In this document: piece after piece, positions 10,127 through 26,872 of the stretch | Layout of the letters: every line of letters starts with the position of its first letter | How positions within the stretch are numbered: position 1 is the stretch's first letter | Assembly: GCA_963674705.1 (NCBI GenBank) | Contig: OY771506.1 | Coordinates: forward strand, 608,001-672,000 | Direction of reading: 5' to 3' | Length of the DNA stretch: 64,000 bases | From: Phycisphaeraceae bacterium | Lineage (GTDB): Bacteria > Planctomycetota > Phycisphaerae > Phycisphaerales > Phycisphaeraceae | Made by a program: the position numbers and the translations under genes | The notes under the pieces: generated by a model | What the model was told of the DNA's origin: nothing | The model's input: only the letters and a program-made list of their open reading frames with translations | Databases searched by the model: none

Positions 10127-11443
10127 TCACACCGACATCAATACTGGTGTGGTCAGCATGGTATACGGGCCTTCGGGGATTACGGCGATGCGTCTATCAG
10201 GATTGTCTTTGATGAATTGATCGATGTACTGCTGCGCGCGGGTTTGTGCGTCGCCTTTACCCGGCGCGGGGGTGACAGCGACTTTATGTTGCGTTTCGAT
10301 AGGCAACCCGTCATTTGCGAAGAGGCTGCGTTCGATGCCGAGTTTTTGCAGGACGCGCGTCTGCATCTGGTAGCCCCACTGGTCTTTCTCTGTTGTTGCG
10401 CTTTGTTTGATGTGTTCGAGAAATGCTTGCCAGTCCGGGCCGAAGCGGTCGTAGATCGCGACGTATTCCGGGTCGCCGATGCGTTGACAATCCGCGACGG
10501 TCAGTAATATGCCGTCTTCTTTTACTGCGGGCAGCGCGCAGCACATGCCTTTGACGGTTTGATAGAAGCTTGTATCCAAGGGGAATCCGCCGCCGCAGGT
10601 GACGACAAGATCGAACGGTTCATCGAAGTCGGCGGACGCCCAGCGTGCAGAGTTTTTGCATCCTGCGATGAACGCTTGATCCAGATCACCCGCGTAAACG
10701 CCTGCAAGTTTTCGGTCGTGCGTGACAGCAACGTTAAGCAGGAAGTCGACGCCGACCTTGTGAGCCGCCATGTCTGCGATTTCGTGGCACGGGTTGCCGA
10801 CGAGTCTGCCTTCGACGGAGTTGGGGTCAGCCATGGTTGCGTAGCCGTGGAAGCGTTGCACGGTGGCAAGGTCGACGATGCCGGGGCAGATGCCTTTGCG
10901 TCCGCCGGAGAAACCTGCCATGAAGTGCGGCTCGATCAAACCCGTCACGATCTTGAGGTCTGCTTCGGCGTAGAGCTTGTTGATCGAGATCGGCGGATCA
11001 TCGGTGATGCGGATGTGCGTTTCGTGTTTGCGTGATTCGTGATCGACGACGTTGACTCGTTTCTGCAGTTCTTTGCCGATCAGGATGTCGAGTTCTTCCT
11101 GGGATGATGGCAGGTGCATGCCGGTCGCGATGAGTACTGTGCAGGCGGAATCGGGGATGCCGACAGCGTTAAGCTGCTCGAGGATCGCGGTAATGAGCAG
11201 TTCGTTTGGCACGGGGCGAGTGATATCACTGATCGTGATGACAACGGTTTTAGGCTTTTTTTCCGCGGCGATTTCGTGCAACGGTTTGCAGCCGATCGGG
11301 TTTTTTAAACCCTCGCGCACCGCGGCTTGCGGGTCGGGCAGTGCGGGGATGTGCGGGCCGATCAGGACGGTTGCGGATTCGGGGAAGCTGAGCTGCATGC
11401 GTCCTTTGCCGAAGCGCAACGATTGTGTGTTCTTGGTTTGCAT
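10127..11443 (-). CDS. larA: Nickel-pincer lactate racemase LarA family protein
   Basis: SDITRPVP, ATGMH, EPHFMAGFSGGRKGICPG and YQTVKG; substrate not certain; start could be 11476. Confidence 0.8.
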   Translation of the reverse strand: MQTKNTQSLRFGKGRMQLSFPESATVLIGPHIPALPDPQAAVREGLKNPIGCKPLHEIAAEKKPKTVVITISDITRPVPNELLITAILEQLNAVGIPDSACTVLIATGMHLPSSQEELDILIGKELQKRVNVVDHESRKHETHIRITDDPPISINKLYAEADLKIVTGLIEPHFMAGFSGGRKGICPGIVDLATVQRFHGYATMADPNSVEGRLVGNPCHEIADMAAHKVGVDFLLNVAVTHDRKLAGVYAGDLDQAFIAGCKNSARWASADFDEPFDLVVTCGGGFPLDTSFYQTVKGMCCALPAVKEDGILLTVADCQRIGDPEYVAIYDRFGPDWQAFLEHIKQSATTEKDQWGYQMQTRVLQKLGIERSLFANDGLPIETQHKVAVTPAPGKGDAQTRAQQYIDQFIKDNPDRRIAVIPEGPYTMLTTPVLMSV

Positions 11444-13943: not shown

Positions 13944-14138
13944 TCAAGCTCTTGTGTGGCTGTTCATCAGTTGATCCAGCGCGCGGACGTGCTGTGGGCC
14001 GTAGCGGCGGTGGCCGCCGACCGTGCGGTGCGACGGCGGGATCAGGCCGAGGCGTTCCCAGACGCGCAGCGACTCGGGCGATACGCCGAAGCGGTCAGCG
14101 AGTTTTCCGATGCTCATCATGTGAAGTTCACGTTCCAT
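13944..14138 (-). CDS. Small MerR-type helix-turn-helix protein
   Basis: MSIGKLADRFGVSPESLRVWERLGLIPPSHRTVGGHRRY is a MerR HTH signature; no effector domain. Confidence 0.8.
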   Translation of the reverse strand: MERELHMMSIGKLADRFGVSPESLRVWERLGLIPPSHRTVGGHRRYGPQHVRALDQLMNSHTRA

Positions 14139-14406: not shown

Positions 14407-14488
14407 TGAGGTGGGACGGAGTTGAACCGCCAGGGTCTTTCGACGGCTGGGTTACAGCCAGCGGGGCCTGCCAATGCCCAACCACCTC
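14407..14488 (-). tRNA. trnY: tRNA-Tyr(GTA)
   Basis: Cloverleaf; anticodon arm GCTGG-CTGTAAC-CCAGC; long variable arm; no CCA. Confidence 0.9.
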
Positions 14489-14616
14489 GGATGAGCCGTT
14501 AGCCGTTAGGCTTTGGCCATGAGCACGGAGTTGTTCCGCCTTTGGCGGATGGGGGCAGCAAGCTGCCCCGCTTAACGGCAAGCCTTTTTGCGCTAACAGA
14601 TGGTGGCTTCATAAAG

Positions 14617-14701
14617 CGGAAGGCGGTGGGCACGATCCACAAACTCAAACGAGTCCCGACCGGTTAGCAACCGGTGCCCGTCCCCGACGGGTTCACCTTC
14701 C
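14617..14701 (-). tRNA. trnS: tRNA-Ser(GCT), atypical T-loop
   Basis: ACCGG-TTGCTAA-CCGGT; long variable arm; T-loop reads ATCGTGC rather than TTCRANY. Confidence 0.8.
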
Positions 14702-14805
14702 TGGTGTATGTAGGCTTGAGGCGTGAGTCTTGAGGCTTGATTAAGCATGCAAAACGTAAGCATTGCGATACTCAAGCCTCATCCCTCAAGTCTCAAGCCT
14801 TCCAA

Positions 14806-14876
14806 AGGCCGGGGCGGGAATCGAACCCGCTTGGACGGGGTTGCAGCCCGTCGCCTTGCCATTCGGCCACCCGGTC
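14806..14876 (-). tRNA. trnC: tRNA-Cys(GCA)
   Basis: ACGGG-CTGCAAC-CCCGT; U73; A2-C71 mismatch. Confidence 0.88.
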
Positions 14877-14931
14877 TTGTGAAGAGTGGATGGATGTGAA
14901 TTGAAGCAATAAAAACCGTTAAAATCCACAT

Positions 14932-15822
14932 ATGGACTTTCTATTCTGCTGTTATCCAAATCGCATTCGTGAAGTTGATCCGGATTATCAGGCCGAGGCT
15001 GATTGCGTAAGACAACTCAGTTCATCTGTGAGTTTGTTGGATCATGACGCTCTGCTTGAGGGAAGTGTCTCCAAATCAATCCGAGGCGTTGAATCCCGTA
15101 CAGATCAGAAACAGCTGTGCTATCGGGGGTGGATGATCCCACCGCCGTTGTATAAACAGCTATACGAGGGTCTACTTGAAAAGAACCTAGTGCTAATCAA
15201 TTCACCCCAGCAGTATCAACATTGCCATTACCTGCCGGATTCATATGAATCTATCAAAGGCAAGACGCCTGAGACTGTGTGGATCCCGGGACGACCTCCG
15301 TTTGATCCAGCACAGATCATGGCGGCAATCAAACTGTTTGGTGGCAAACCGTTGGTCCTGAAAGATTATGTGAAGTCGCAGAAGCACTATTGGAAGGAAG
15401 CCTGCTACATACCTGACTCAAACAAGCAAGATGAAGTCATGTCCCGGGTTAACAGGTTCATCGAGCTACAGTGTGATGACATCGAGGGTGGATTGGTGTT
15501 TCGCGCGTATGTGCCGATCAAGATCATTGGGCGACATGCGGTTAGTGGTATGCCGTTAAGTCATGAATATCGTGTTGTGTGGTTTGAACAGAATCCGGTT
15601 GTGGTTTGGCCTTATTGGGATGCTGCTGATCCGAGGGAATGTGATCCGCCTTTGGATGCATTTCGCGAAGTCGCGAACCAGATCAACAGTCGGTTTTTCA
15701 CGATGGATATTGCTGAGCTTGACGACAGCAGTTGGATCATTGTTGAGCTAGGCGATGCGCAGGTCGCAGGATTACCGGAGAATGCTGATCCGGTGACTCT
15801 GTATAAACCGTTAATTGATTGA
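14932..15822 (+). CDS. ATP-grasp domain protein (R2K-clade-like)
   Basis: YRGWM, CHYLPDSY, VLKDYVKSQKH, GGLVFR, EYRV and FFTMDIA..W.IVELGDAQVAG. Confidence 0.8.
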   Translation: MDFLFCCYPNRIREVDPDYQAEADCVRQLSSSVSLLDHDALLEGSVSKSIRGVESRTDQKQLCYRGWMIPPPLYKQLYEGLLEKNLVLINSPQQYQHCHYLPDSYESIKGKTPETVWIPGRPPFDPAQIMAAIKLFGGKPLVLKDYVKSQKHYWKEACYIPDSNKQDEVMSRVNRFIELQCDDIEGGLVFRAYVPIKIIGRHAVSGMPLSHEYRVVWFEQNPVVVWPYWDAADPRECDPPLDAFREVANQINSRFFTMDIAELDDSSWIIVELGDAQVAGLPENADPVTLYKPLID

Positions 15823-15850
15823 CTTGGCATATCAGAATGCAATTCAAAAA

Positions 15851-15922
15851 TGCGGCCGACAGGGATCGAACCTGCTCCTCCGCCGTGGCGGGGCGGCGCT
15901 CGGCCAATTGAGCTTCGACCGC
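15851..15922 (-). tRNA. trnG: tRNA-Gly(GCC), atypical (A8, C33, A73)
   Basis: CCGCC-CCGCCAC-GGCGG; standard D and T arms. Confidence 0.85.
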
Positions 15923-15956
15923 GTGGTGGGTAGTTCGTTGTGATATCGATTAGAAG

Positions 15957-16029
15957 CACGCACGGTAGGGGTTGAACCCACATCTGGTGGATTTGGAATC
16001 CACTGCTCTGCCGATTGAGCTACGTGCGT
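15957..16029 (-). tRNA. trnW: tRNA-Trp(CCA)
   Basis: GTGGA-TTCCAAA-TCCAC; G73. Confidence 0.92.
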
Positions 16030-16179
16030 GTGGGGAGAGCTGTTAGCTGTTAGCTGTTAGCCGTCAGTAAGAAGTATTCCGCCTGCGGCGGATGGGGGTA
16101 GCAAGCTGCCCCGCTAAACGGGGAGAACGCGAAACGCGAAACGGCTTGAGCTAATGGCTAAGGGCTAACGGCTCATAAA

Positions 16180-16251
16180 CTGCACCGGCAGGAATCGAAC
16201 CCGCAACCGTCTGCTTAACAGGCAGCCGCACTACCTTTGTGCTACGGTGCA
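16180..16251 (-). tRNA. trnN: tRNA-Asn(GTT)
   Basis: CTGC-CTGTTAA-GCAG; U1-A72; G73. Confidence 0.9.
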
Positions 16252-16302
16252 ATGTGTGTGATTGACTAAAGCCTCACCGCTCAAGTCTCAAGACTTTTCA
16301 AA

Positions 16303-16375
16303 TCACCCCGGCTGGGGTCGAACCAGCACGCTGCCGTTTAGAAGACGGCCGCTCTTCCGTTTGAGCTACGGGGCG
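16303..16375 (-). tRNA. trnR: tRNA-Arg(TCT)
   Basis: GCCGT-CTTCTAA-ACGGC; GGAA D-loop (A20). Confidence 0.9.
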
Positions 16376-16432
16376 ATGCTCGACTTATTCGATCGTTATT
16401 GACAGCGTGATGCGATACCTGACAATGCGGGT

Positions 16433-17470
16433 ATGTATGAAAATCAAACCAACAGTGACGGTGATAAAGGACCGGGGGCTGAGGCTGTCGCTCGTGTGGT
16501 TGACGCGGCGAATCAGCATCCCGATGAAGGGCCAACGGAAGAACTGATCACTGCGATCAATGAATTGGTTGCACAGGACAAGCATCTTGATGCGAACACG
16601 TATCGAGCCTTGTCGGAGAGCATCAAGCAGATACGGTCGCCGATGAGTGCGGGATTCGTCGCTGTCTGGTTAGGTGCGACGGTTGAAAATGGTGCGGACC
16701 CGCATGTGCCGTTGCCGCATGTTCTTGAATACCTGTACAACCTGATCGCCACGATCCAAACGCCGAAGGACGATGAGCCGGATGATGCGGTCCCCGAACC
16801 GGGCGAACTTGTGCAGCAAGCATTGGATCACCTGGGGCAGGCGCTGGTCGCGATGTTGATACGTTGTCCCGATGCGATCAGGGAACTCATCCGGCGCGAG
16901 CAGGCTGTATCCGAGCTTGAGCGCGTGGAGCATCTGGCGAGTGGACCCAAGTGGATATTAGCGTTACTTAGACAACGCAGCGGTGAGTTGCTTGTATTGC
17001 ACGGCGTTGAAGGGGTCGGCGTTCGTGTGAAGTATGAGAATATCGAAAACTGTTTTCACCTGTTCACGCTCCTTCAGGGTTTACTCCAGCGTGTGATGCC
17101 CGGCGCGAAGACGCAAAGCACGACGATGTACAAGATCGCGCGGGGTGAACTGGTCGGGCAGGTGCATGACTCGGCGTGGTGGCATTACGGCCGGGCCGGG
17201 GTGCCGAAGGCGGACTTTGTCGGGATGGTCTTTGGCGAGCCGACGCTAGATTCGATCGATGAGGTTGACGGACAACAGGTGTTGCTGCTCTGGCCGCCGA
17301 TCATCGCGGATCGTTCGTGGAACTCTGGCTTTTTCCAGCCGATCATCGATGCCAGGAAGCCGAACGTTGAGTTGCTGGAGAAGCTGTCGCCTGACGAGGT
17401 TAAACGCTGGCGCGAACGGTTGGGTTTGCCTGCGGCAAAGGCGCGGCCGTGGTGGCGTTTCTGGTCTTGA
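16433..17470 (+). CDS. Hypothetical protein ending in a RPWWRFWS motif
   Basis: 345-aa ORF filling the space between two tRNAs on the opposite strand. Confidence 0.75.
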   Translation: MYENQTNSDGDKGPGAEAVARVVDAANQHPDEGPTEELITAINELVAQDKHLDANTYRALSESIKQIRSPMSAGFVAVWLGATVENGADPHVPLPHVLEYLYNLIATIQTPKDDEPDDAVPEPGELVQQALDHLGQALVAMLIRCPDAIRELIRREQAVSELERVEHLASGPKWILALLRQRSGELLVLHGVEGVGVRVKYENIENCFHLFTLLQGLLQRVMPGAKTQSTTMYKIARGELVGQVHDSAWWHYGRAGVPKADFVGMVFGEPTLDSIDEVDGQQVLLLWPPIIADRSWNSGFFQPIIDARKPNVELLEKLSPDEVKRWRERLGLPAAKARPWWRFWS

Positions 17471-17483
17471 CCGTGAGTATGAA

Positions 17484-17555
17484 AGCCGGCGGCCGGGATC
17501 GAACCGGCGCCTCCGTGGTACGAGCACGGTGTTCTGCCTGTTGAACCACACCGGC
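17484..17555 (-). tRNA. trnT: tRNA-Thr(CGT)
   Basis: CCGTG-CTCGTAC-CACGG; G1-C72, C2-G71. Confidence 0.9.
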
Positions 17556-17632
17556 GATAAAACCCTCGGCCCGAAGACCGAGGGCTGCAGAGAAAAAACG
17601 CGAAACATTCGCATGCAGACACCATTAAGAAG

Positions 17633-17705
17633 TGGCCCCGGTGGGACTCGAACCCACACCCAGCGGATTAAAAGTCCGCTGCTCTGCCGATCGAGCTACA
17701 GGGCC
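17633..17705 (-). tRNA. trnK: tRNA-Lys(TTT)
   Basis: GCGGA-CTTTTAA-TCCGC; A73. Confidence 0.92.
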
Positions 17706-17869
17706 TTGTCGTGTTGTTTTAAAATGGGAGAGCGAGCAGGCTGGCAGCCTGCGGCTAATGGGTGAGTGCGTTGGGATGAAGTTGTTGAAAACAAGATAGC
17801 CAGTTGATCTACGATGTTTCGCGGCGGGCTTTGTTACCCTACACCCCACACCCTAAACCCTATCCACAA

Positions 17870-17943
17870 TGCGCCGTGTCGGCCTCGAACCGACCACCTG
17901 CTGGTTGGAAGCCAGCCGCTCTGCCGAGATGAGCTAACGACGC
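17870..17943 (-). tRNA. trnG: tRNA-Gly(TCC), A73
   Basis: GCTGG-CTTCCAA-CCAGC; GCG acceptor start. Confidence 0.9.
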
Positions 17944-18024
17944 CAGGTATGTTTCATTTCTGCATGCTCTGTGTGGCGCAGTCGCAATACGGCCACGGCC
18001 GATCATCTATAATGGGCGGCACCG

Positions 18025-19896
18025 ATGGGACAGCTTGCCGAGAATACGGTGTTGCGATCACAACGTGTTTACAAAACCCGTTGGATCTCGGGTTTTGTCC
18101 TGATCTCTGGTGTCACGATGGCTGGCGCCTGTCTGTTCATCATTCTCGCGACATTGCTTGCGGGCAAATCCAGCCCGATCATGCAAGTGATTGTCACAGT
18201 CTGGCTGGGGATCACGGCAGCTTTCTTTCTCTGGTATCCACTTCACATGTTCAGCCGATCGCTGACGCGATATATCTTCACACCTGAAGCGTTAATTGAA
18301 CGTTCGCTGTTCCGCAAGCAGGTCATGCCCTGGCGTGACGTGACGGATTATTCCGTGGTGGCTGGTGACGCGGGGGAGCCGTTGTCACACATCATCTTTC
18401 ATCTGGTCGACGGCCAGACCAAACAACTGCCGTTGGACCTGATCCCCGAAGGCCGGGTGGAGACGTTACTTTCGGCATATGTGCCGTTGATCGCGGAGCA
18501 TGGGTTGGAGCGACCGAGGCAAGCCGGATCGTCAAAAAGCGAACTGCGTAAAAGCACACGGAAGGAAGCCATCTCCGATTGGGCTACTCTTTGTTTCAAC
18601 ATTTTGTTTGGTGGGATTTGTATCACAGTATCTGTCTTTCTCATGCTTGGTCGCATGGAGTATCAACTAATCATCAGCGATCCGGTGGAAGTGACCGCGA
18701 CGGTTATTGAACTGGATGTTGATGAAGAGGATGCATCGTTAACATTTGAATTCACTGACGATCAAGGCCATGTTGTCCGATCTAGCCGGTCGGTCGAGGT
18801 GAGCACAGCTAAAACATTGGCTGTAGGCAGCGAAGTAACCGTCAAGCACCTGCGTGGTTCACCTACAAAAGTCCGATTGAAGAAGGGCGATCTGGATCAC
18901 CAAGAGTGGCTGTACGTATTCGTCAGCTTCCCGCTGGGGTGGTTGTGTATTTGGGGGTGTTTCCGGCTGCTCAGGTCGATTTTTGGGCCTAAGACAAAAT
19001 CGGCGTCATGGTCGGTCCAGTCTAATTATGACGAGGCGATTATCTCGTACAGCCCGGCATATATGGAAACCAGTGTTGCTATGATCCCCGAGCAACATGT
19101 CGGTGCGGCGGTTTTTCTTCGTCTGAACAGCAAGGAAAACAGCAATCAATTCGTGGATCAGATGTCCACTTTTTCACCAAGCTCGCATGAATTGAACGGG
19201 AACAATATCCAGTGTGAAAACATTGCCGGGATTTTCCTGTGTATGGGGCCCGTGGCGATGTCTCGTTTTGTATCCCGCTTGGGCGAGCCGGCCAAGACCC
19301 GTGCTGAATATGTCGTGCTCGACATGGCGGACAGTGTGGAAGTAAGCCGGTGGGCGGTACGGAATGATCCGAGGCATCGCGACATGGATGAATTATTCAG
19401 CGATGAAGTCGTTCGGTTCTGTTGCCGAAATAACACGGTTGGGCCGGTGCAGCCGGGTGAACTGACATACGTGTTTGATCGATTCATCATGCAAATGATC
19501 AAAGCCCTGTGTGAAGATCAGACGCCCGCGGGGCTATACGACGTCAGTATCTGTCAAATCCTGAATCTCTCACCCAAAGACCTTGATGCCAGGATCATGC
19601 TGTCGCTGCAGATGAACCGGTTGCGGATTTTTGTGCAGCTGCGCGGCGTCAATCAAGCTTCGGTGGCTGAGTATCAATTTGGACAGTGGCGGCGCACCCC
19701 GGAAATGCCCGTGCCATTAAGCATGCGCAACTTCAAGTGGTTGAAGTATGTGTTAGCGCTGCCGTATGGTCCGTGGCTGATATTGCCGGTGTTACCGTAT
19801 CTCATCTACTGGGCGATGGAATTGCCATGCAAATGGTATCGGCACTTTCAATTGAATAAAGCGCGGGCCGCGTTGTTGCAATCTTCCTCGATCTGA
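18025..19896 (+). CDS. Multi-pass membrane protein (bacterial PH-like plus DUF3592-like segments)
   Basis: 623-aa ORF with several hydrophobic helices; VTATVIEL...FEFTDDQG...VGSEVTVKHL resembles DUF3592. Confidence 0.7.
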   Translation: MGQLAENTVLRSQRVYKTRWISGFVLISGVTMAGACLFIILATLLAGKSSPIMQVIVTVWLGITAAFFLWYPLHMFSRSLTRYIFTPEALIERSLFRKQVMPWRDVTDYSVVAGDAGEPLSHIIFHLVDGQTKQLPLDLIPEGRVETLLSAYVPLIAEHGLERPRQAGSSKSELRKSTRKEAISDWATLCFNILFGGICITVSVFLMLGRMEYQLIISDPVEVTATVIELDVDEEDASLTFEFTDDQGHVVRSSRSVEVSTAKTLAVGSEVTVKHLRGSPTKVRLKKGDLDHQEWLYVFVSFPLGWLCIWGCFRLLRSIFGPKTKSASWSVQSNYDEAIISYSPAYMETSVAMIPEQHVGAAVFLRLNSKENSNQFVDQMSTFSPSSHELNGNNIQCENIAGIFLCMGPVAMSRFVSRLGEPAKTRAEYVVLDMADSVEVSRWAVRNDPRHRDMDELFSDEVVRFCCRNNTVGPVQPGELTYVFDRFIMQMIKALCEDQTPAGLYDVSICQILNLSPKDLDARIMLSLQMNRLRIFVQLRGVNQASVAEYQFGQWRRTPEMPVPLSMRNFKWLKYVLALPYGPWLILPVLPYLIYWAMELPCKWYRHFQLNKARAALLQSSSI

Positions 19897-19915
19897 GCCC
19901 GACTCACAAAATCAA

Positions 19916-19990
19916 TCAGCCCGGCTGGATTCGAACCAGCGATCTCTCCCGCCCGAAGGGAGCGTGATGACCAAGCTTCACCACAGGCTG
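19916..19990 (-). tRNA. trnP: tRNA-Pro(CGG)
   Basis: CTCCC-TTCGGGC-GGGAG; C1-G72, A73. Confidence 0.9.
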
Positions 19991-20120
19991 TTAAGCACAA
20001 TGCATAGTTGATTGAGTGTTCAATCAAATATAGTTCACACGAGATTGCTGGCCCTCACCCCGGCCCTCTCCCAAGGGGAGAGGGAGTAAAACACTAAGCC
20101 GCAAGCGGCTTTTGGGTGAA

Positions 20121-20192
20121 TCAGGGGAGAGGGAGTCGAACCCGCTTCCTCGGGGTCACGGCCCGAAGCTTTACCGCATAAGCTATCCCCTG
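20121..20192 (-). tRNA. trnH: tRNA-His(GTG), atypical (no G-1:C73; C1-G72, A73, C33)
   Basis: TCGGG-CCGTGAC-CCCGA; acceptor CAGGGGA/TCCCCTG-A. Confidence 0.8.
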
Positions 20193-20233
20193 AATGACGG
20201 GCCCCCGATCCCGCCTCATTGAATCATGTGTGA

Positions 20234-20482
20234 TTATTGTCTGAAGTAATGGCTGCGGTTTGAGCCGTCGAGTTTGCCGGTCTTCATGCAGCACTTCTTA
20301 AAAGCGTTTGCCGCTGCCGCAAGGACATGGATCGTTGCGGCCGAGCTTTTCGATCAGTTCTTTGTTGCCATGAACGCATTGGTCGCCCCGCTTGACTTGT
20401 GACTCGGACGGGTAGCCGTAGCGTCGCTTGCTCATGGGCTGGAAAGGATTGGTCGTCGTTAAAAGCGATGGTCCTTGTGCAT
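20234..20482 (-). CDS. SEC-C motif zinc-binding protein, split across frames (candidate +1 programmed frameshifts)
   Basis: AAAGGAGGT SD plus ATG 20482; [15 protein letters not shown] stops at TAA 20298 and the motif-completing KKCC lies in the +1 frame. Confidence 0.75.
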
Positions 20483-20548
20483 GGTGCACCTCCTTTGATA
20501 ATAGATTGTTACCACTCACACTCCCCCTCTCTTGCGTCAGAAGTTATA

Positions 20549-21529
20549 ATGCAGGAGATGAAATTACGGCCTAAAGCATTAGAAAACTTGGCGGTAATGA
20601 TTTGCGGAAATAAAGATGATCCGTATGGAATACCATTTTCATATCGCTCTAGTTCATACTTAACAGGTTTCTTTTCTGAGTGTGACTTAACATTTGTACA
20701 TGATGGCTCAACACGTAAAAGGTGGGTACTAGATGTTCTAAATTCACTAAACCAAAATGTCGCAAGTATGCCCGATCTCCCCTCAGATGACCTGGTTCGG
20801 GTAATCACCGAATTAATGGATCCAGACCATTTTGACGCGGAAGATACCGATCGAGGACAGGCCTTGAACAAGTTAAACCAAACTCTCAGCCGAGATTCCT
20901 TGATCGCATATATTGAAAATAATGGGCAGTGTTATTTACGACATACAGGCGCTGGTACAACATCTGCAATGTTGCCTCAACGACCCCGCCCACTATCTCC
21001 AGAAGAAAAACAACAGCGAGACACACTGTCCAAATTTCTCGATAACGCGAGCGAAGACGAGTTTACAGAAACAGTACTAGTCCCATTATTTCAGCGCCTT
21101 GGATATCACAGAGTCATAGCATCGGGGCACAAAGAAAAAGTATTAGAATTCGGGAAAGACTTATGGATGAAGTTTCAATTACCAACTGCCCATTGGATAT
21201 ACTTTGCCATACAGGTAAAAAGAGTGAAAATTGATGCCAAAGGTAAAAGCAGTGGTAATGTTACAGAAGTACTCAATCAGGTGAGAATGGCTCTGGACCA
21301 CGAGATATTTGATCCCGATGTAAATCGAACAGTACTACCAGATCATATCTACGTTATTTCGGCTGCAGAGATAACCCGAGCAGCACAAGCTTGGATCATT
21401 CGACATCTAGATAGAGAACAACGACGTCAAATCATCTTCATGGATCGCACGGAATTATTGAATTTCGCAGCTCGAATAGTTACAGAACTACCAACGCCGA
21501 ATTCTATCGATGACGAAATACCTTTCTAA
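20549..21529 (+). CDS. Putative PD-(D/E)xK restriction-endonuclease-like (Mrr-like) protein with AbiJ-like N-terminus
   Basis: EDEFTE..LVPLFQRLGY, EFGKDL and AIQVK catalytic-type motif; visibly more AT-rich than its flanks. Confidence 0.7.
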   Translation: MQEMKLRPKALENLAVMICGNKDDPYGIPFSYRSSSYLTGFFSECDLTFVHDGSTRKRWVLDVLNSLNQNVASMPDLPSDDLVRVITELMDPDHFDAEDTDRGQALNKLNQTLSRDSLIAYIENNGQCYLRHTGAGTTSAMLPQRPRPLSPEEKQQRDTLSKFLDNASEDEFTETVLVPLFQRLGYHRVIASGHKEKVLEFGKDLWMKFQLPTAHWIYFAIQVKRVKIDAKGKSSGNVTEVLNQVRMALDHEIFDPDVNRTVLPDHIYVISAAEITRAAQAWIIRHLDREQRRQIIFMDRTELLNFAARIVTELPTPNSIDDEIPF

Positions 21530-21532
21530 AAA

Positions 21533-21605
21533 TCAGAGCGGCAGGACTCGAACCTGCGGCCGCCTGGTCCCAAACCAGGCGCTCTGCCAACTGAGCTACG
21601 CTCTG
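21533..21605 (-). tRNA. trnP: tRNA-Pro(TGG)
   Basis: CCTGG-TTTGGGA-CCAGG; C1-G72, A73. Confidence 0.92.
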
Positions 21606-21664
21606 TGATAAAGCCCGGCCGGGCGCGCTTGTGAGAAGCGGCCCGATGGCCGGGGATATAGGGG

Positions 21665-22279
21665 TTAATCGTGCAACTCGGTGTTCCAGTACGCGGTGTC
21701 CACGAAGTGTTTCCACGTGTCGTGGCGGAACCGATGCGAACGGAACATGAGTGCCGTCGGGTCCGGACGCTTCGGCTGACGGATCAACTTCAGGCCGGCC
21801 TCTTCGGGCGTGCGGTTGCCTTTGATCGCGTTAACTTCGACGCAGCAGCAAACCAGGTTTTCCCAATTCGTCTTGCCGCCACGCGAGGTGGGGATGACGT
21901 GGTCGAGGTTCAGCTTGCTGGCAGGGAGTTTGCGGCCGGTGTACTGGCAGGTGTAGTTATCCCGCAGGTACACGTTCTTTCGGCTCAAGCGCACGGCCTG
22001 GCGTTGCATACGCCGATCGAACCGCAGCATGCGGACGACGCTTGGGACGATGATGGCCGAGGTTACCGTTCGCACGAAGCTGTGGGCCTCGGGCTCGAAC
22101 TCATGTGCGAATTCACTGAGCTCGTGCCAGGATGCGAAGTCGTAAGCGCGATAGTTTTCGTCAACGGCTTCGACTCGGCCGACAAACAGATCGGCCAGCG
22201 CTTCAGCAGCGGTGATGATCCGCAGCGCGGCGTAGTTACGGTTCAGAACGAGCACATCATGCGACAGAGCCGACGTCAT
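21665..22279 (-). CDS. HNH endonuclease
   Basis: VLVLN, LSRKNVYLRDNYTCQY, LNLDHVIPTSRGG..WENLV..C..VNAIKG; AAAGGAGGT SD 5 nt before ATG 22279. Confidence 0.9.
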   Translation of the reverse strand: MTSALSHDVLVLNRNYAALRIITAAEALADLFVGRVEAVDENYRAYDFASWHELSEFAHEFEPEAHSFVRTVTSAIIVPSVVRMLRFDRRMQRQAVRLSRKNVYLRDNYTCQYTGRKLPASKLNLDHVIPTSRGGKTNWENLVCCCVEVNAIKGNRTPEEAGLKLIRQPKRPDPTALMFRSHRFRHDTWKHFVDTAYWNTELHD

Positions 22280-22381
22280 GGCCGACCTCCTTTCAGGATT
22301 GAAGTTGATTGACTGGTTTTGTCCCCTCTCCCCAGGCAACGAATTCGATCTGCGTTGCAACTTCTTACAGAAGAAAACTAT

Positions 22382-22548
22382 TAGCCACCGATGAACACGG
22401 ATGAACACAGATCAGAATAAATCCTGTTTCGTGTTTCGAACACATTGACTCAAGATGCCTGTTCTGACTACTTGAACTGCGATGAATCTGATGCACTTAA
22501 GCTTCTCTTGCTTTGCATCTGTGTTCATCCGTGTTTATCTGTGGCTAA
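22382..22548. repeat. Inverted-repeat element family B (GCCAC-GATGAACACGGATGAACACAGAT ... ATCTGTGTTCATC-GTGGC)
   Basis: Paired arms also at 25641-25733, 27282-27375 and 29209-29320; single arm at 6756-6787; related variant at 24143-24260. Confidence 0.85.
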
Positions 22549-22613
22549 AATTGGCTGGCTGAAGACTCCGAACGAATATGTTGCGAGGGAAGAGGGAGCA
22601 GGAGTAAAGCAAG

Positions 22614-22685
22614 TGGAGCTGCGGGGAATCGAACCCCGATCTCCCGGGTGCAAGCCGGGTGCTCTCCCGATTGAGCTACGGCCCC
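22614..22685 (-). tRNA. trnA: tRNA-Ala(TGC)
   Basis: CCCGG-CTTGCAC-CCGGG; G3-U70 present. Confidence 0.92.
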
Positions 22686-22696
22686 ATGAAAAGGAA

Positions 22697-22761
22697 TGTC
22701 GCGGAGAGGATTCGAACCTCCATCAACTGGGAAGTGCCTCTGCCGATTGGGCTACGACGAC
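22697..22761 (-). ncRNA. tRNA-like RNA or pseudo-tRNA lacking a normal anticodon arm (Leu-type D-arm)
   Basis: 65 nt: acceptor GTCGTCG/CCGCGAC-A, D-arm GCCCAATCGGCAGAGGC, perfect TTCGAAT T-loop, but only ACT-TCCC-AGT in place of the anticodon arm. Confidence 0.7.
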
Positions 22762-23993
22762 AAAATTAAAAAAAGTAAGTGGCCCGGGTGGGAGTCGAAC
22801 CCACAACGCACCGGATCTGAGCCGGCGTCCTCTGCCGGTTGGGATACCGAGCCGGAGATAGAGCAGGAGTAAAACAGAGCAGGAGAACAGGAGATAGGAG
22901 AGCAGGAGAAAAAGATAAGTGCTCTCGGCTGGGGTCGAACCAGCACGCCGTTGCCGGCAGCGGGGTTTAAATCCGCCGCGTCTGCCTGTTCCGCCACGAG
23001 AGCGTTTGTTTGTTTAACACGAATGCCGCCGGCAGGATTCGAACCTGCACGTTGCCGGGTTTGAGCCGGCTTCCTCTGCCGATTGGGATACGGCGGCCAG
23101 GTTGGTGCGTCGGGCGGGATGATGAGTTTGCTGCGATACGGGCGGACGGTTTGTCGCGGGGTGTGAAGTTGCCGAAAGCGTTTCGCTAGCAGCGTACAGA
23201 ATCGACAGTATTCAAGATCCACATCTTTTAGCTTAACTTGAATACAGCGTGAACCATCCAAGTATCTCTTAGCTTGCTTTTCGGCAATCTCTGTATACGA
23301 GCGTGCGTAATACGGGCCACCATAGATCCGCCACAACTCACTAATGCTGATAGGTGCTCTGCCCAGCACGGCGTCTATAAAGTCGAAACCCCAAGGGGGA
23401 TACCCCAAGATTCGCCGGGCGGTGATGGGCGCCAGGTCAATCATGAACCAACGATGACGCCGGTGATGCAATTGGAAACCGGCGCAGACATCAAAAAACA
23501 CACAAGGTGGGTCAAACTTTCTGCATGACCTAAACGACGGCGACATCATCAGTAGACCGGTGTCCGGATGCACATAGAACCGGTCGCGCCAATGGCGGCC
23601 CCAGATTGGTTGCCAACCGAAGGGGTAGCCGACCGAACAGGGTTGGCCGTCAATGATCCGGACATGTCGGACAACAAGCCAGAGCACGTGGTCGCGCACG
23701 TGGTTTTGAACGGTACTGTCAACCCGGACGTGTTGGCTGATCTCCGACCAGACATCGTTCCACGGCTTGCCGACCGAGCTCTGCAGGAAACGGATCAGTG
23801 GGGCCAGGTTTTCGCTTTGCCACTTCATATTTTTCCATGTCTGCCAGGCTCGTTTCATACCTTCTATATGGGGTAGGCCGGTGTCGTCATCGGCGTCGCG
23901 TGGTAATCGGTAGCGCTTGGCGCCACGGGGGAACTTATTACGGCAGCCTCCCCGCGGTCGCTCGACGATCAGCTTGGCCATGTCGCTTCGCAC
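22752..23993 (-). CDS. Arg-rich hypothetical protein (MRSDMAKLIVERPRGG...); frame runs on through three tRNA-Leu genes
   Basis: AAAGGAGGT SD 5 nt before GTG 23993; protein-like for about 250 aa (ENLAPLIRFLQSSVGKPWNDVWSEI, FYVHPDTGLL); first stop at 22752. Confidence 0.7.
   Translation of the reverse strand: MRSDMAKLIVERPRGGCRNKFPRGAKRYRLPRDADDDTGLPHIEGMKRAWQTWKNMKWQSENLAPLIRFLQSSVGKPWNDVWSEISQHVRVDSTVQNHVRDHVLWLVVRHVRIIDGQPCSVGYPFGWQPIWGRHWRDRFYVHPDTGLLMMSPSFRSCRKFDPPCVFFDVCAGFQLHHRRHRWFMIDLAPITARRILGYPPWGFDFIDAVLGRAPISISELWRIYGGPYYARSYTEIAEKQAKRYLDGSRCIQVKLKDVDLEYCRFCTLLAKRFRQLHTPRQTVRPYRSKLIIPPDAPTWPPYPNRQRKPAQTRQRAGSNPAGGIRVKQTNALVAEQADAADLNPAAGNGVLVRPQPRALIFFSCSPISCSPALFYSCSISGSVSQPAEDAGSDPVRCGFDSHPGHLLFLILSS
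22780..22853 (-). tRNA. trnL: tRNA-Leu(CAG), short variable loop, A37
   Basis: GCCGG-CTCAGAT-CCGGT; variable region only GCGTT. Confidence 0.85.
22920..23003 (-). tRNA. trnL: tRNA-Leu(TAA)
   Basis: GCGGA-TTTAAAC-CCCGC; long variable arm GCCG-GCAA-CGGC. Confidence 0.9.
23024..23097 (-). tRNA. trnL: tRNA-Leu(CAA), short variable loop
   Basis: GCCGG-CTCAAAC-CCGGC; variable region only AACGT. Confidence 0.87.
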
Positions 23994-24048
23994 GGCACAC
24001 CTCCTTTCTGCTGTTGCGGTTGTTGCGGTTGCTACGAAGACAGGACAA

Positions 24049-24121
24049 TCACCCCGGCAAGAATCGAACTTGCAGCCTTCGGCTTCGGAGGCCGATGCTC
24101 TTCCGGTTGAGCTACGAGGTG
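24049..24121 (-). tRNA. trnR: tRNA-Arg(CCG), A37
   Basis: TCGGC-CTCCGAA-GCCGA; AACCGGAA D-loop. Confidence 0.9.
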
Positions 24122-24292
24122 TTAGTGAAAACAAAAGCGGTTTGCCACGAAAAGGCACAGAAGACACAAAAGGGCTGGCTTAAGAAGCACAGAACATTGC
24201 GTAACAAACCAATTGAATACTCATGTATTTCTATTTTGTGGTTTTTGTGCCTTTTGTGGCTACTTCTTAGTCTTACATGAATGTGAGATTAA

Positions 24293-24365
24293 ACAGGCCG
24301 GCGGGATTTGAACCCGCAACCTGCCGGTTCAAAGCCGGCCGCTCTTCCGGTTGAGCTACAGCCCG
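24293..24365 (-). tRNA. tRNA with Gln anticodon (TTG) on an Arg-like body
   Basis: GCCGG-CTTTGAA-CCGGC; D-arm identical to the Arg(CCG) copy; C1-G72, U73. Confidence 0.75.
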
Positions 24366-24366
24366 A

Positions 24367-24438
24367 TCGACCCGGCGTGACTCGAACCCACGCACAGGCC
24401 CTTATAAGGGACCCGCTCTGCCACTGAGCTACGGGTCG
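24367..24438 (-). tRNA. trnI: tRNA-Ile(TAT)
   Basis: GGTCC-CTTATAA-GGGCC; A73; G52-A62 mismatch in T-stem. Confidence 0.82.
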
Positions 24439-24594
24439 GGGGATTCGATCTGAAGTACCAATTCAATTGGATTACCCGCTCGATCATGTTGCATACGAAT
24501 ACACAATGAATTCGGCCCTCACCCCGGCCCTCTCCCGAGGGGAGAGGGGGAAAGTACAAGCCTCAAGACTCACGCCTCAAACCTTTTCAAAAAG

Positions 24595-24667
24595 CCACCC
24601 CGGCAGGATTCGAACCTGCACCTTCCGGATTCGTAGTCCGGCGCCCATCCGCTTGAGCTTCGGGGTG
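24595..24667 (-). tRNA. trnR: tRNA-Arg(ACG), A8
   Basis: CCGGA-CTACGAA-TCCGG; A20. Confidence 0.9.
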
Positions 24668-24682
24668 AAGTACCCGACGGCG

Positions 24683-25396
24683 TTATGCAAACCGACGGGC
24701 GATGTATGTATTGATCGTGTCAACAACACGACGCTGCGATGCGAGCACATGGTCTGCGTGAAGTCGAAAATCACGAGGAATGTGGCCATGCTCATCGTAG
24801 GCCACCTCTCGCCAAAGGATCACCAGGCCGACGCCCGCGAATGTGTATTGATGGCGGTTTTCCGAAAAATGACAACGACGGACTAACTCTGCGCCGTACG
24901 ATACACGTGCCAGATCCCGGCCGAAGTTACCCGTCCAGGTCACGATCTGTTCGAGGTCGGCTTCAACAAGAGGCCAGCCGTTCGATGCAACAAGATCACG
25001 TAACGTCATCAGCTTCAGGACCCTCGCCATATCGCGATCACGTTTGCGTGGGTATACCTTATCGCCCAGCCGCCAGATCAGTCGATTGCAGAACCGGCAA
25101 CTGCAATGAATATCAACCGGTGTTTGCCGCAATGGGTGATCTGCGGAGGTATGTCCGAACGATACTAACATGCTTGTGTAAGCAACCATGTCAGCATCAT
25201 GAAGAAGTAGTTCTTCCGGGATAACGCCGCGGTTATTCACAAGCCAATCCGCAGCAGCTTCGCACTCAGGTATATGTTTGTGGTCGTGGTCGAACCGCAG
25301 GCCGGTTTTGAAACGGGCATCACGGAGCCAATCGATGAATGCGTAGACAATCTGTTGTACACGTATCGCCTGATCAACTGTTTGTTTTGTGAGTAC
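24683..25396 (-). CDS. Hypothetical protein with CxCxxC motif; start position occupied by GTA
   Basis: Open frame fills the Thr(TGT)-Arg(ACG) spacer; SD-like AAAGGCAGGT lies 5 nt before in-frame GTA 25396; alternative TTG 25417 has no room for an SD. Confidence 0.6.
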   Translation of the reverse strand, partial: VLTKQTVDQAIRVQQIVYAFIDWLRDARFKTGLRFDHDHKHIPECEAAADWLVNNRGVIPEELLLHDADMVAYTSMLVSFGHTSADHPLRQTPVDIHCSCRFCNRLIWRLGDKVYPRKRDRDMARVLKLMTLRDLVASNGWPLVEADLEQIVTWTGNFGRDLARVSYGAELVRRCHFSENRHQYTFAGVGLVILWREVAYDEHGHIPRDFRLHADHVLASQRRVVDTINTYIARRFA

Positions 25397-25419
25397 GATG
25401 CACCTGCCTTTGAGCAAAG

Positions 25420-25492
25420 AGCCACGAGTCGGGATTGAACCGACGACCTGCGGTTTACAAGACCGCTGCTCTGCCAGTTGAGCTACCGTGGC
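25420..25492 (-). tRNA. trnT: tRNA-Thr(TGT)
   Basis: GCGGT-CTTGTAA-ACCGC. Confidence 0.93.
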
Positions 25493-25538
25493 GGGGAACT
25501 TTCGGGGGGAAACTTCCGGGGGAAACTTCCGGGGGAAA
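25493..25538. repeat. Short tandem repeat (GGGGAAACTTCC-like, about 3.5 copies)
   Basis: Direct reading; the complementary CCCGGAAGTTTT motif recurs at about 26122, 26378 and 57163. Confidence 0.65.
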
Positions 25539-25539
25539 G

Positions 25540-25613
25540 CGACGCCGACGGGGATCGAACCCGTGACCTCTTCCGTGACAGGGAAGTGCTCTTGCCGATT
25601 GAGCTACGGCGCC
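25540..25613 (-). tRNA. trnD: tRNA-Asp(GTC)
   Basis: CTTCC-CTGTCAC-GGAAG; G73. Confidence 0.92.
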
Positions 25614-25754
25614 GTGCTTCAATCTGAATAGAAAGTATTTTTAGCCACGGATGAACACGGATGAACACAGATAAGATTTGAAAATATCTCATTCAGATCG
25701 TAATCCGTGTTTATCTGTGTTCATCGGTGGCTAATACAGGTTAATACAGCACAA

Positions 25755-25836
25755 AGCTACCGACGGGAGCCCCCGGTTTTGAACCCGTGACCGCCCGCTT
25801 ACCACGCGGGTGCTCTTCCGGCCGAGCTCCGGCAGC
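25755..25836 (-). tRNA. trnT: tRNA-Thr(GGT) with a 9-nt T-loop insertion (possible pseudo-tRNA)
   Basis: CCCGC-GTGGTAA-GCGGG; T-arm ACGGG-TTCAAAACCGGGGGCT-CCCGT; G8, G32. Confidence 0.65.
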
Positions 25837-25849
25837 ATTGTTAAAACAA

Positions 25850-25922
25850 TTGACCCGAGAGGAATTGAACCTCTTGCCCCCCGCTTATCAGGCGGGTGCT
25901 CTTGCCGGTGAGCTACGGGTCA
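25850..25922 (-). tRNA. trnI: tRNA-Ile(GAT)
   Basis: CCCGC-CTGATAA-GCGGG. Confidence 0.9.
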
Positions 25923-26000
25923 AGTCTGTAATAAAGCGCATCGCCCCGCCGCCCGATTGCGACGGGGCTTGCGATTTTTTTACATCCATCCACTCTTAAC

Positions 26001-26032
26001 TTGTCAATGAACGCGTGGCTGTAAACACAGCC
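26001..26032 (-). promoter_or_regulatory. boxB-like hairpin plus boxA-like antitermination signal
   Basis: GGCTGT-GTTT-ACAGCC followed 4 nt later by GTTCATTGACAA (compare rrn boxA GCTCTTTAACAA). Confidence 0.5.
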
Positions 26033-26039
26033 GACTAAG

Positions 26040-26111
26040 CCGCTGGTCCCGGATTCGAACCGGGGGCTCCCGGGCTTCAACCGAGCGCTTTACCCGCTAA
26101 GCGAACCAGCG
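26040..26111 (-). tRNA. trnF: tRNA-Phe(GAA), atypical (G37, C38, G73, C1-G72)
   Basis: CTCGG-TTGAAGC-CCGGG; acceptor CGCTGGT/ACCAGCG-G. Confidence 0.85.
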
Positions 26112-26185
26112 CCCCCCCGATCCCCGGAAGTTTTTCCCTCGTGTTATTCACACGGAAGGAATGCTTCCGGGGATCGGGTTAAAAG

Positions 26186-26257
26186 TCGCCGCGGTCGGGA
26201 TTGAACCGACGCACTTCCCCATGTAACGGGGATGCTCTACCGCTGAGCTACGCGGCA
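26186..26257 (-). tRNA. trnV: tRNA-Val(TAC), G32
   Basis: TCCCC-GTTACAT-GGGGA. Confidence 0.88.
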
Positions 26258-26439
26258 TCGTTGGCGCACCGATCGCGTGGACGGTTTTGGCCGTCTTTGT
26301 CGCACCGATCGGTGCGCCACTTTCGGGTTGTCTCGGCCGAGAAGGGATATACCCCCGTCTCTCAGCCTCTCCCCAGCCCCCGGAAGTTTTGTCACTCGCG
26401 CTACTCACGCGTAAGTAATCTTCCAGGGACGGTTGTTAA

Positions 26440-26511
26440 TGGCGGCGACGGGACTCGAACCCGTGTCTCCGGGACATGAACCCGGCAAGGAACCAACTCC
26501 TCCACACCGCT
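26440..26511 (-). tRNA. trnfM: Initiator-type tRNA-fMet(CAT), G37
   Basis: CCGGG-TTCATGT-CCCGG (three G-C pairs), A1-C72 mismatch, A11-U24. Confidence 0.85.
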
Positions 26512-26525
26512 ATTTACTTTTTAAG

Positions 26526-26599
26526 TCGCGATGGCTGGACTTGAACCAGCAACCTTTCCCGTATGAAGGGCGTGCTCTACACTTTTGAGCTACATCGCG
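26526..26599 (-). tRNA. trnM: tRNA-Met(CAT), elongator type, degenerate
   Basis: CGCCC-TTCATAC-GGGAA with two mismatches at the top of the stem; D-loop lacks GG. Confidence 0.7.
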
Positions 26600-26647
26600 A
26601 ATTTGTTGTTTTCGATCGTCCTTTCTTTTTAACACTCAAACTTTGAA

Positions 26648-26719
26648 TGGCCGCGGCTGGGATCGAACCAGCGCCCCCCTGCTTGTCGTGCAGGTGATCT
26701 ACCGCTGATCTACGCGGCC
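26648..26719 (-). tRNA. trnV: tRNA-Val(GAC), A32/C33
   Basis: CCTGC-ACGACAA-GCAGG. Confidence 0.87.
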
Positions 26720-26732
26720 ATGGGATAACCAA

Positions 26733-26803
26733 TAGCCTTGGCGGGAATTGAACCCGCGGCTCCGCCTTGAAAGGGCGGCGTGCTTCCACTGCACCACAAG
26801 GCC
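26733..26803 (-). tRNA. trnE: tRNA-Glu(TTC), first gene of the array
   Basis: CCGCC-CTTTCAA-GGCGG; U11-A24. Confidence 0.9.
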
Positions 26804-26872
26804 AATGCATAACGACAGTTACGTCGTTTCGAACGTCGTGTGGCGTCGGGTTTTGAGTCTGGGGAAGCGGGC

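Follow-up and report, generated by a model that had tools for sequence, protein, structure and literature searches.

The window, a stretch of 64,000 nucleotides from a Phycisphaeraceae genome, carries a long tRNA array, and between tRNA-Pro(TGG) and tRNA-His(GTG) of this array lies a small gene for a SEC-C protein (Table 1), present in a single copy in the one-contig 5.5-Mb host genome. We tested a decoding rule in which an in-frame TTTY (TTT followed by a pyrimidine) is read as a single Phe. Applied to the window gene, the rule gives a product of 81 amino acids with 18 Lys/Arg and 9 Asp/Glu residues and a pI of 9.6. The Shine-Dalgarno (SD) sequence, the ATG at 20482, the three TTT-Y sites and the 81-aa product had been proposed in a sequence-only reading of this DNA, and all coordinates hold. 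In homologs an SD-led start is retained at the same distance. Shift site 1 is found also in loci L002-L004, and in L006 its place is taken by an in-frame TTC-GAC with unchanged spacing.

Table 1. Features of the SEC-C gene and of the surrounding tRNA array (window positions)
Feature	Position	Strand	Remarks
Shine-Dalgarno sequence AAAGGAGGT	20488..20496	-	anti-SD duplex -12.2 kcal/mol; 5 nt before ATG
Start codon ATG	20482-20480	-	opens the leader
Leader segment 1	20459..20482	-	7 codons, Phe last, then TAA in frame 0
Shift site 1, CGC-TTT-T-AAC	20458..20467	-	UUU-U facing UAA; T run 20464-20461
Shift site 2 (family site A), TCC-TTT-C-CAG	20439..20448	-	UUU-C, A-site CCA; TTTC 20445-20442
Core segment	20304..20441	-	basic motif KRRxG[YF]PSE; SEC-C knuckle, first half (CPC)
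Internal ATG	20433..20435	-	without SD; mostly a residue, not a start, across the SEC-C family
Shift site 3 (family site B), CGC-TTT-T-AAG	20297..20306	-	UUU-U facing UAA, within the SEC-C motif; T run 20303-20300
Final segment	20234..20299	-	last two Cys ligands (KxCC), conserved DG..R..YF tail, TAA stop 20236-20234
tRNA array	14407..26804	-	30 tRNA genes (ARAGORN), all on the minus strand
HNH endonuclease gene	21665..22279	-	within the array
Array tRNA-Phe(GAA)	26039..26111	-	G37-C38; candidate trans-acting stimulator; housekeeping copy A37-A38
Small MerR-type HTH gene	13944-14138	-	directly 3′ of the array
Antisense ORF	14932-15822	+	R2K-clade ATP-grasp protein
Antisense ORF	16433-17470	+	
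Antisense ORF	18025-19896	+	
Antisense ORF, 326 aa	20549-21529	+	between tRNA-Pro(TGG) and the SEC-C gene
Weak tRNA-like match	22697-22761	-	32 bits; relatives have tRNA-Leu(GAG) here; probably a degenerate tRNA
ORF in the array	22752-23993	-	SD-led, basic N-terminus, 0 family matches; frame continues through three tRNA-Leu genes
Palindrome AACGAC-N6-GTCGTT	26811-26828		just 5′ of the first tRNA; more ACGAC words around

The 81-aa product matches the full 19-position Pfam SEC-C model (PF02810) with 39.4 bits only by way of shift 3, as expected from the earlier claim that the last two ligands exist only in the shifted frame; the unshifted 45-aa piece covers model positions 1-13. With the SEC-C domains of SecA, YecA and YchJ (PDB sequence matches 9l6b, 1sx0 and 1ozb) the product shares the CxCx8CC pattern, a conserved Ser and an aromatic residue, but unlike them it is a free-standing mini-protein and has a basic N-terminal motif and a tail of its own. 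Models of the YecA/YchJ type in NCBIfam scored 20-34 bits against cut-offs of 68-158, the likeness being confined to the motif, which places the product outside these families. Homolog P0017, folded instead of the window product, reached a pLDDT of 53 alone and 66 with an alignment. Fold searches with the predicted structure (Foldseek, VIA-align) gave 0 matches, and the ESM Atlas search yielded only other small SEC-C clusters. SecA-type knuckles were reported to bind ribosomes, that of SecA being known to bind Zn/Fe and SecB or the ribosome (10.1101/613315), and by analogy the SEC-C product is most likely a ribosome or RNA binder that would aid recovery.

The array is similar to the long tRNA arrays (L-arrays): it has about 30 co-oriented tRNAs and an embedded HNH gene, a known companion of such arrays (PMC8421152), near which RtcB is often found. 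The long tRNA array of Anabaena was reported to be induced 100-1000-fold by ribosome-targeting antibiotics (PMC8421152); the main text of that paper mentions neither SEC-C nor frameshifting nor G37. Loci L003-L005 lack the 326-aa antisense ORF of the window and have the tRNA about 100 nt upstream of the start. This ORF had no Pfam, NCBIfam or PADLOC match, and we take it to resemble a restriction/Abi-type insertion. The palindrome preceding the first tRNA presumably resembles the sites of WYL regulators and, judged by its sequence, is possibly the operator of the array.

Contigs from four public runs, belonging to three studies, span the shift sites and differ by substitutions, with 0 indels at the T runs. 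The check was made on assembled contigs, one of which (X1) possibly comes from the source sample. The X1 contig is identical to the window over 20060-20900, the X4 contig has 13 substitutions and no gap over 20094-20900, and the X6 contig has 15 substitutions and no gap over 20315-20498. A second X6 piece crosses site 3, and its sole gap is at 19995. Assembly error, which the sequence-only reading had raised in the form of homopolymer error in the T runs, was ruled out by these contigs.

Distribution of the family and its frame breaks

A close homolog was found in 8 of 60 related genomes, and every copy breaks at TTT-Y. A scan of genome contigs gave at least 519 confirmed stretches, of which the best 80 were analysed. 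Together with nine loci of related genomes (the window included) and after removal of three duplicates these make up 86 non-redundant loci from 12 named phyla, 50 in Planctomycetota and 11 unlabelled; two virus loci were kept separate. Matches below 1e-25 were obtained in 22 genomes from an even draw of 301 planctomycete genomes, and three hits around 1e-13 were left out. Cultured carriers include Massilia, Pelomonas, Stieleria and Novipirellula. The annotated phages searched gave 0 matches. Two plasmid records, from a single organism, matched, and the copy examined is decayed. Among the best 80 matches to viral contigs two were true members, the remainder sharing the SEC-C motif only. The virus locus L104 (record G426, 533 kb) carries a copy whose three sites make up another set (one at G-F-P, two before D-G), as well as dispersed tRNAs and a G37 tRNA-Phe, and it has the upstream word TTGACGGGCAAATCA in common with L007-L009. 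Loci L005, L214 and L242 hold decayed or partly in-frame copies, one of them next to a SIR2-family gene on a plasmid of Manganitrophus. There was no intact member among the 108 loci examined. The protein databases returned 1075 matches, named SEC-C, YecA-like, YchJ-like, nucleic acid-binding or hypothetical; those inspected are fragments of the frameshifted gene, which flags the family as apparently mis-annotated in the form of partial ORFs.

The leader start was picked by anti-SD energy alone. From this start the standard reading gave the full protein at 0 of 85 loci, the TTT+Y rule at 64 and a rule of TTT plus any base at 49. Of the 192 four-base rules tried, the other 190 reached at most 7 of 85, the figure of the best non-TTT rule. 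At the planctomycete loci of the even draw (23, including at least three genomes already in the main set) the standard reading and the TTT+Y rule gave the full protein at 0 and 16 loci, respectively. Exempting TTT-C at the G-F-P of the core raised the latter to 20 of 23; this exemption was set after the data had been seen.

The core is reached only by the TTT+Y rule, that is by at least one leader shift, at 80 of 85 loci; one exception is standard (L005, with an apparently decayed 3′ end) and four reach the core neither way. By these counts the most conserved candidate shift site, and a near-universal one, is site 2, which immediately precedes the E/Q-P-M-S-K-R-R motif. Junction B (window site 3) is broken in 15 of 86 copies, always at TTT-Y, and none of the 71 intact copies has TTT-Y there; 69 of them carry TTC, or TTT followed by a purine. 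The sequence-only reading had taken the last shift to be the best supported one, and these counts reverse that order. Junction C follows G-R/C and is shifted in 66 of the 86 copies, by TTT-Y in 57 and by CTT-TGA, CTG-TGA and CTT-C in three each; in the CTT-C copies, all acidobacterial, the shift lies a few codons upstream. Junction D lies ahead of the final R-E/D; of the 70 copies that could be scored there, 61 are shifted, 59 of them at TTT-Y. The P-site codon can thus be re-paired in the +1 frame (TTT-Y or CTT-Y) at nearly every site, with three CTG-T exceptions. These are the CTG-TGA sites at junction C of L086, L090 and L098 (Pirellulales), in which the downstream segment and site D are still conserved. 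They would pair poorly after a slip and count against a simple rule of P-site re-pairing.

An alternative proposed earlier was that the first two shifts are bypassed by initiation at the internal ATG at 20435. That this ATG has no SD was confirmed across the family: the median anti-SD pairing is +1.0 kcal/mol, compared with -8.4 kcal/mol for the leader start. An ATG occupies the position in 61 of 85 loci, and in 23 of 80 a Thr, Ile, Ser or Leu codon stands there instead. The bypass is thus unlikely, the internal start was rejected as the normal route, and the leader shifts appear to be part of the design.

The pN/pS ratio was 0.22 in the core segment (19 codons tested). In segments accessible only by way of a shift it was 0.39 (14 sequences, copies shifted at B) and 0.36 (64 sequences), compared with 0.32 and 0.40 in intact copies and about 0.9-1.7 in the other frames. 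Variation in the shift-only segments is biased to third positions, and identical breaks reappear in diverged homologs. The conserved TTT-Y break and the purifying selection for which the sequence-only reading had proposed a test were both found. A pseudogene was ruled out by the conserved TTT-Y junctions and by purifying selection past the breaks. A frame break conserved with coding selection on both sides is what a programmed +1 frameshift would be expected to show, and conservation, selection and controls together support a SEC-C gene that would depend on +1 frameshifting.

Among 80 loci the number of shifts per gene was two in 14, three in 58 and four in 8, and never 0 or 1. The variance of this total was 0.26, compared with 0.71 when the sites were shuffled. 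On the gene tree, which is poorly resolved, each site switches state 8-11 times. An independent-pairs test of the conserved total gave only one or two supported pairs, the gene being too short. As judged from the alignments, the putative shifts fall at a small number of fixed Phe codons, the use of which varies between lineages while the total stays at 2-4.

A gene for RtcB, Hen1, a Pnkp-type kinase, an RNA ligase or Tpt1 was present at 23 of 77 loci, often directly 3′ and on the same strand, and at least two tRNAs were found within 1.5 kb at 13 of 77. One or the other occurred at 32 loci and neither at 45, many of the loci being short. The same seeds found only two RNA-repair enzyme loci in the 5.5-Mb host genome.

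Codon context and the array tRNA-Phe

At internal UUU-U sites a stop codon occupies the A site in 97 of 98 cases. This stop is forced by the next residue at junctions B and C but not at D, where the Arg following UUU-U is encoded by AGR, giving UAG, in 41 of 41 cases, whereas AGR accounts for 64 of 741 Arg codons at other places in the family. At D, CGN codons occur only following UUU-C (5/18; Fisher p 0.002, related copies not being independent). UUU-C sites face the sense codons CGA, CAG, CAA and CCN, and UUU-CGA is the most frequent leader site (36 cases). None of the 142 shifted internal junctions has an A before the shift codon, the usual base there being C. Anti-SD pairing upstream of B averages -5.3 in shifted and -2.2 in intact copies, and an SD-like element (-4 kcal/mol or lower) stands before B in 10 of the 15 shifted copies and in 5 of the 71 intact ones; window site 3 has no such element upstream (-1.7). 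A scan for promoters and terminators gave results at chance level, and the search for a shared upstream motif returned only tRNA T-loops and lineage-specific words, with no sigma-54 site.

At the G-F-P of the core, TTT-C accounts for 6 of 55 Phe codons, and for 4 of 23 at the loci of the even draw, and has to be read in frame there. It is about as frequent as the harmless TTT at intact B (9/69), with no visible purging. The tetramer alone is therefore insufficient, and context or modest rates must matter. Genome G000 has 2729 in-frame TTT-Y in long ORFs, and the other array genes, which offer few codons and of which several are antisense insertions, gave no sign of TTT-Y avoidance. The Leu variants of the CUU-Y type favour P-site re-pairing over one special tRNA.

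UUU_Y is described as +1-prone in bacteria, and modification of base 37 of tRNA-Phe may inhibit shifting at UUU_U (PMC5009743). The host genome encodes proteins of the MiaA and TrmD families. The A37-A38 of the housekeeping tRNA-Phe is presumably the pattern of a MiaA substrate. Other tRNAs of the array have A37 (His, Leu(CAG/GAG), Arg(NCG), Gln) or C38 (Tyr, Cys, Leu(TAA/CAA)), and so do those of family loci with at least eight tRNAs. From its sequences the array looks like a spare tRNA set with lower dependence on TrmD and MiaA.

G37 is present in 8 of 9 array tRNA-Phe genes of family loci. By pattern match with the stems checked by eye, a search that can miss variant tRNAs, a G37 tRNA-Phe was found in 11 of 22 planctomycete genomes that carry the SEC-C gene, in 12 of 279 that lack it and in 20 of 77 genomes from another set; within family f12 the counts were 7/12 for gene-positive genomes versus 4/12 (p 0.41). 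In the near-complete genome G088, for which all pattern matches were listed, only an A37 tRNA-Phe was seen. The G37 tRNA-Phe was rejected as a requirement since the search did not find it in 11 of the 22 gene-positive genomes, the single-contig G265 among them; it is a plausible stimulator of shifting. Six genomes of family f51 (G184, G202, G219, G234, G248, G261) have a G37 tRNA-Phe without the SEC-C gene, which may be their housekeeping copy. The tRNA-Phe(GAA) at 11364 of the Anabaena trn operon (locus L213) also has G37, as in the window array, with no SEC-C gene in the Anabaena region examined; aberrant gel mobility was reported for the operonic tRNA-Phe(GAA) of Anabaena (PMC8421152).

Proposed serial +1 slippage and its alternatives

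The closest known case is FseA of Mesorhizobium (ICEMlSym, msi172-msi171), a functional bacterial shift at UUUC in which tRNA-Phe moves from UUU to UUC and which proceeds at 4-13% (PMC4755241). Window site 2 (TCC-TTT-C) is of this type, and UUUC is common in the family. In FseA one site joins the two ORFs of a transcription activator and a G-rich sequence lies upstream (PMC4755241), whereas window site 2 has no upstream Trp-Gly and the SEC-C gene has 2-4 serial sites within about 80 aa, in 12 named phyla and at lineage-variable positions. With prfB (RF2, CUU-UGA-C) the family shares a re-pairable P-site codon before a stop, UAA at window sites 1 and 3, and in three loci CUU-UGA itself at site C. 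It differs in its mostly UUU codons, in facing UAA, UAG, UGA and sense codons at several sites, and in that the frameshifted product is a SEC-C protein, not a release factor. The comparison with prfB drawn earlier therefore stands for the UUU-stop sites but not for the UUU-C sites such as window site 2, which lack an A-site stop and resemble FseA. The E. coli argI error, Yersinia YopN-TyeA and influenza PA-X (UCC_UUU_CGU) have the same tetramer and preceding C, as single low-level events making an extra product (PMC5009743), whereas in the SEC-C family shifting would be the sole route to the conserved protein. In Euplotes and in Perkinsus mitochondria several +1 shifts per gene occur, as here, as part of a genome-wide change of decoding (PMC5009743); here they are confined to one bacterial gene family. 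Single UUU-Y shifts, prfB and the eukaryotic multi-shift genes are already known. In the open literature searched we found neither the SEC-C family nor any bacterial gene that depends on more than one conserved +1 shift, and SEC-C is not mentioned in the main text and two supplement files of the GeneTack survey (PMC3711429), so the family and its serial design are apparently new.

From the observed breaks and their conservation, the selection, the codon context and the gene neighbourhood we infer the ribosomal nature of the shift, its rate and regulation, and the target of the protein. The reading we consider likely is that of a selected 81-aa SEC-C gene in which serial programmed +1 slippage gates a response to translational stress. 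At each site the P-site peptidyl-tRNA-Phe(GAA) would slip from UUU to the overlapping UUY. At UUU-U re-pairing would gain nothing and the A-site stop would supply the pause, as in prfB; at UUU-C the slip would gain a G:C pair and, as in FseA, a stop would be unnecessary. In many family members an SD-like element just 5′ of site B may add to the shift. Per-site yields multiply, which makes about three sites a steep gate: at FseA-like rates of 4-13% per site the full product would amount to about 0.006-0.2% (the range cubed), and a 3-fold rise per site would give 27-fold more. As the earlier reading had also supposed, the product would arise only under impaired frame maintenance or termination. 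Because tRNA arrays and RNA-repair enzymes accompany the gene, its most likely role is to signal translational stress, and it is probably switched on when translation fails. The inputs might be damaged or hypomodified tRNA, slow termination, ribosome-targeting drugs (chloramphenicol was reported to raise frameshifting; PMC10959953) and possibly the G37 tRNA-Phe of the array. A more elaborate form, which we regard as tentative, is a multi-input sensor of frame fidelity in which the number of slips is selected over their place and the stress-induced array supplies a +1-prone G37 tRNA-Phe. Array induction or damage to tRNAs or ribosomes would then lead to synthesis of a ribosome-binding knuckle protein, whose action in restoring frame maintenance or rescuing ribosomes would complete a feedback loop.

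The breaks might instead form a fixed attenuator, in which three constitutive low-rate slips, without any sensing, restrict a potent or toxic protein to traces and reduce noise. Such a role was proposed for FseA (PMC4755241), a conserved total close to three is compatible with selection on yield, and the tolerated accidental TTT-C of the core suggests modest rates. A very strong SD (median -8.4) followed by three brakes would, however, be wasteful for a low constant level, and the links to stress-induced arrays and RNA repair as well as the selection on A-site stops speak for regulation rather than a fixed yield, so we judge the attenuator unlikely. We give still less credence to the G37 tRNA-Phe as a dedicated key, which without the bulky modification at A37 would read four bases or slip readily and would make the protein dependent on expression of the spare set. 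The prevalence of G37 in array tRNA-Phe genes, its enrichment in gene-positive genomes, the 533-kb virus record with both the gene and a G37 tRNA-Phe, and the proposed inhibition of UUU_U shifting by base-37 modification (PMC5009743) agree with it. This tRNA was, however, not found in half of the gene-positive genomes nor in 57 of 77 genomes of the other set, G088 has A37 only, the difference within f12 is not significant, the Anabaena region combines a G37 tRNA-Phe with no SEC-C gene, and the CUU-Y sites require tRNA-Leu.

Loss of a base at the RNA level, by RNA polymerase slippage or editing, with normal reading by the ribosome, would suit the many sites that are T runs (TTTT, up to T7). RNA polymerase slippage usually requires longer runs, many sites have only three T (TTTC), and the breaks track codon phase, A-site stops and the SD-like element, which are ribosomal features; we consider this very improbable. 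We find it scarcely credible that only pieces of the gene function, through a start at ATG 20435 or re-initiation, or that we are dealing with a pseudogene or an assembly error. An ATG at that position in 61 of 85 loci, the partial ORFs annotated in databases and the decayed L005, L214 and L242 are what such a reading has in its favour. It is opposed by the lack of an SD and the absence of the ATG from 23 of 80 loci, by the stop inside the metal motif that ends its frame in the window, by purifying selection past each break and by the indel-free contigs of three studies. Serial programmed slippage remains the reading we prefer.

Known functional bacterial +1 frameshifts are few and have a single site. 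If the preferred reading is true, the SEC-C gene would represent a novel mode of regulation that reads out translational accuracy with ultrasensitivity and in which the slip count is kept while the positions move, in at least 12 phyla. The at least 519 matches flag the whole family as mis-annotated, as YecA/YchJ-like or hypothetical fragments. The family is a natural library of UUU-Y contexts from which it may be learned what triggers shifting, and for the unusual G37 tRNA-Phe of stress-induced arrays it suggests a role that can be tested.
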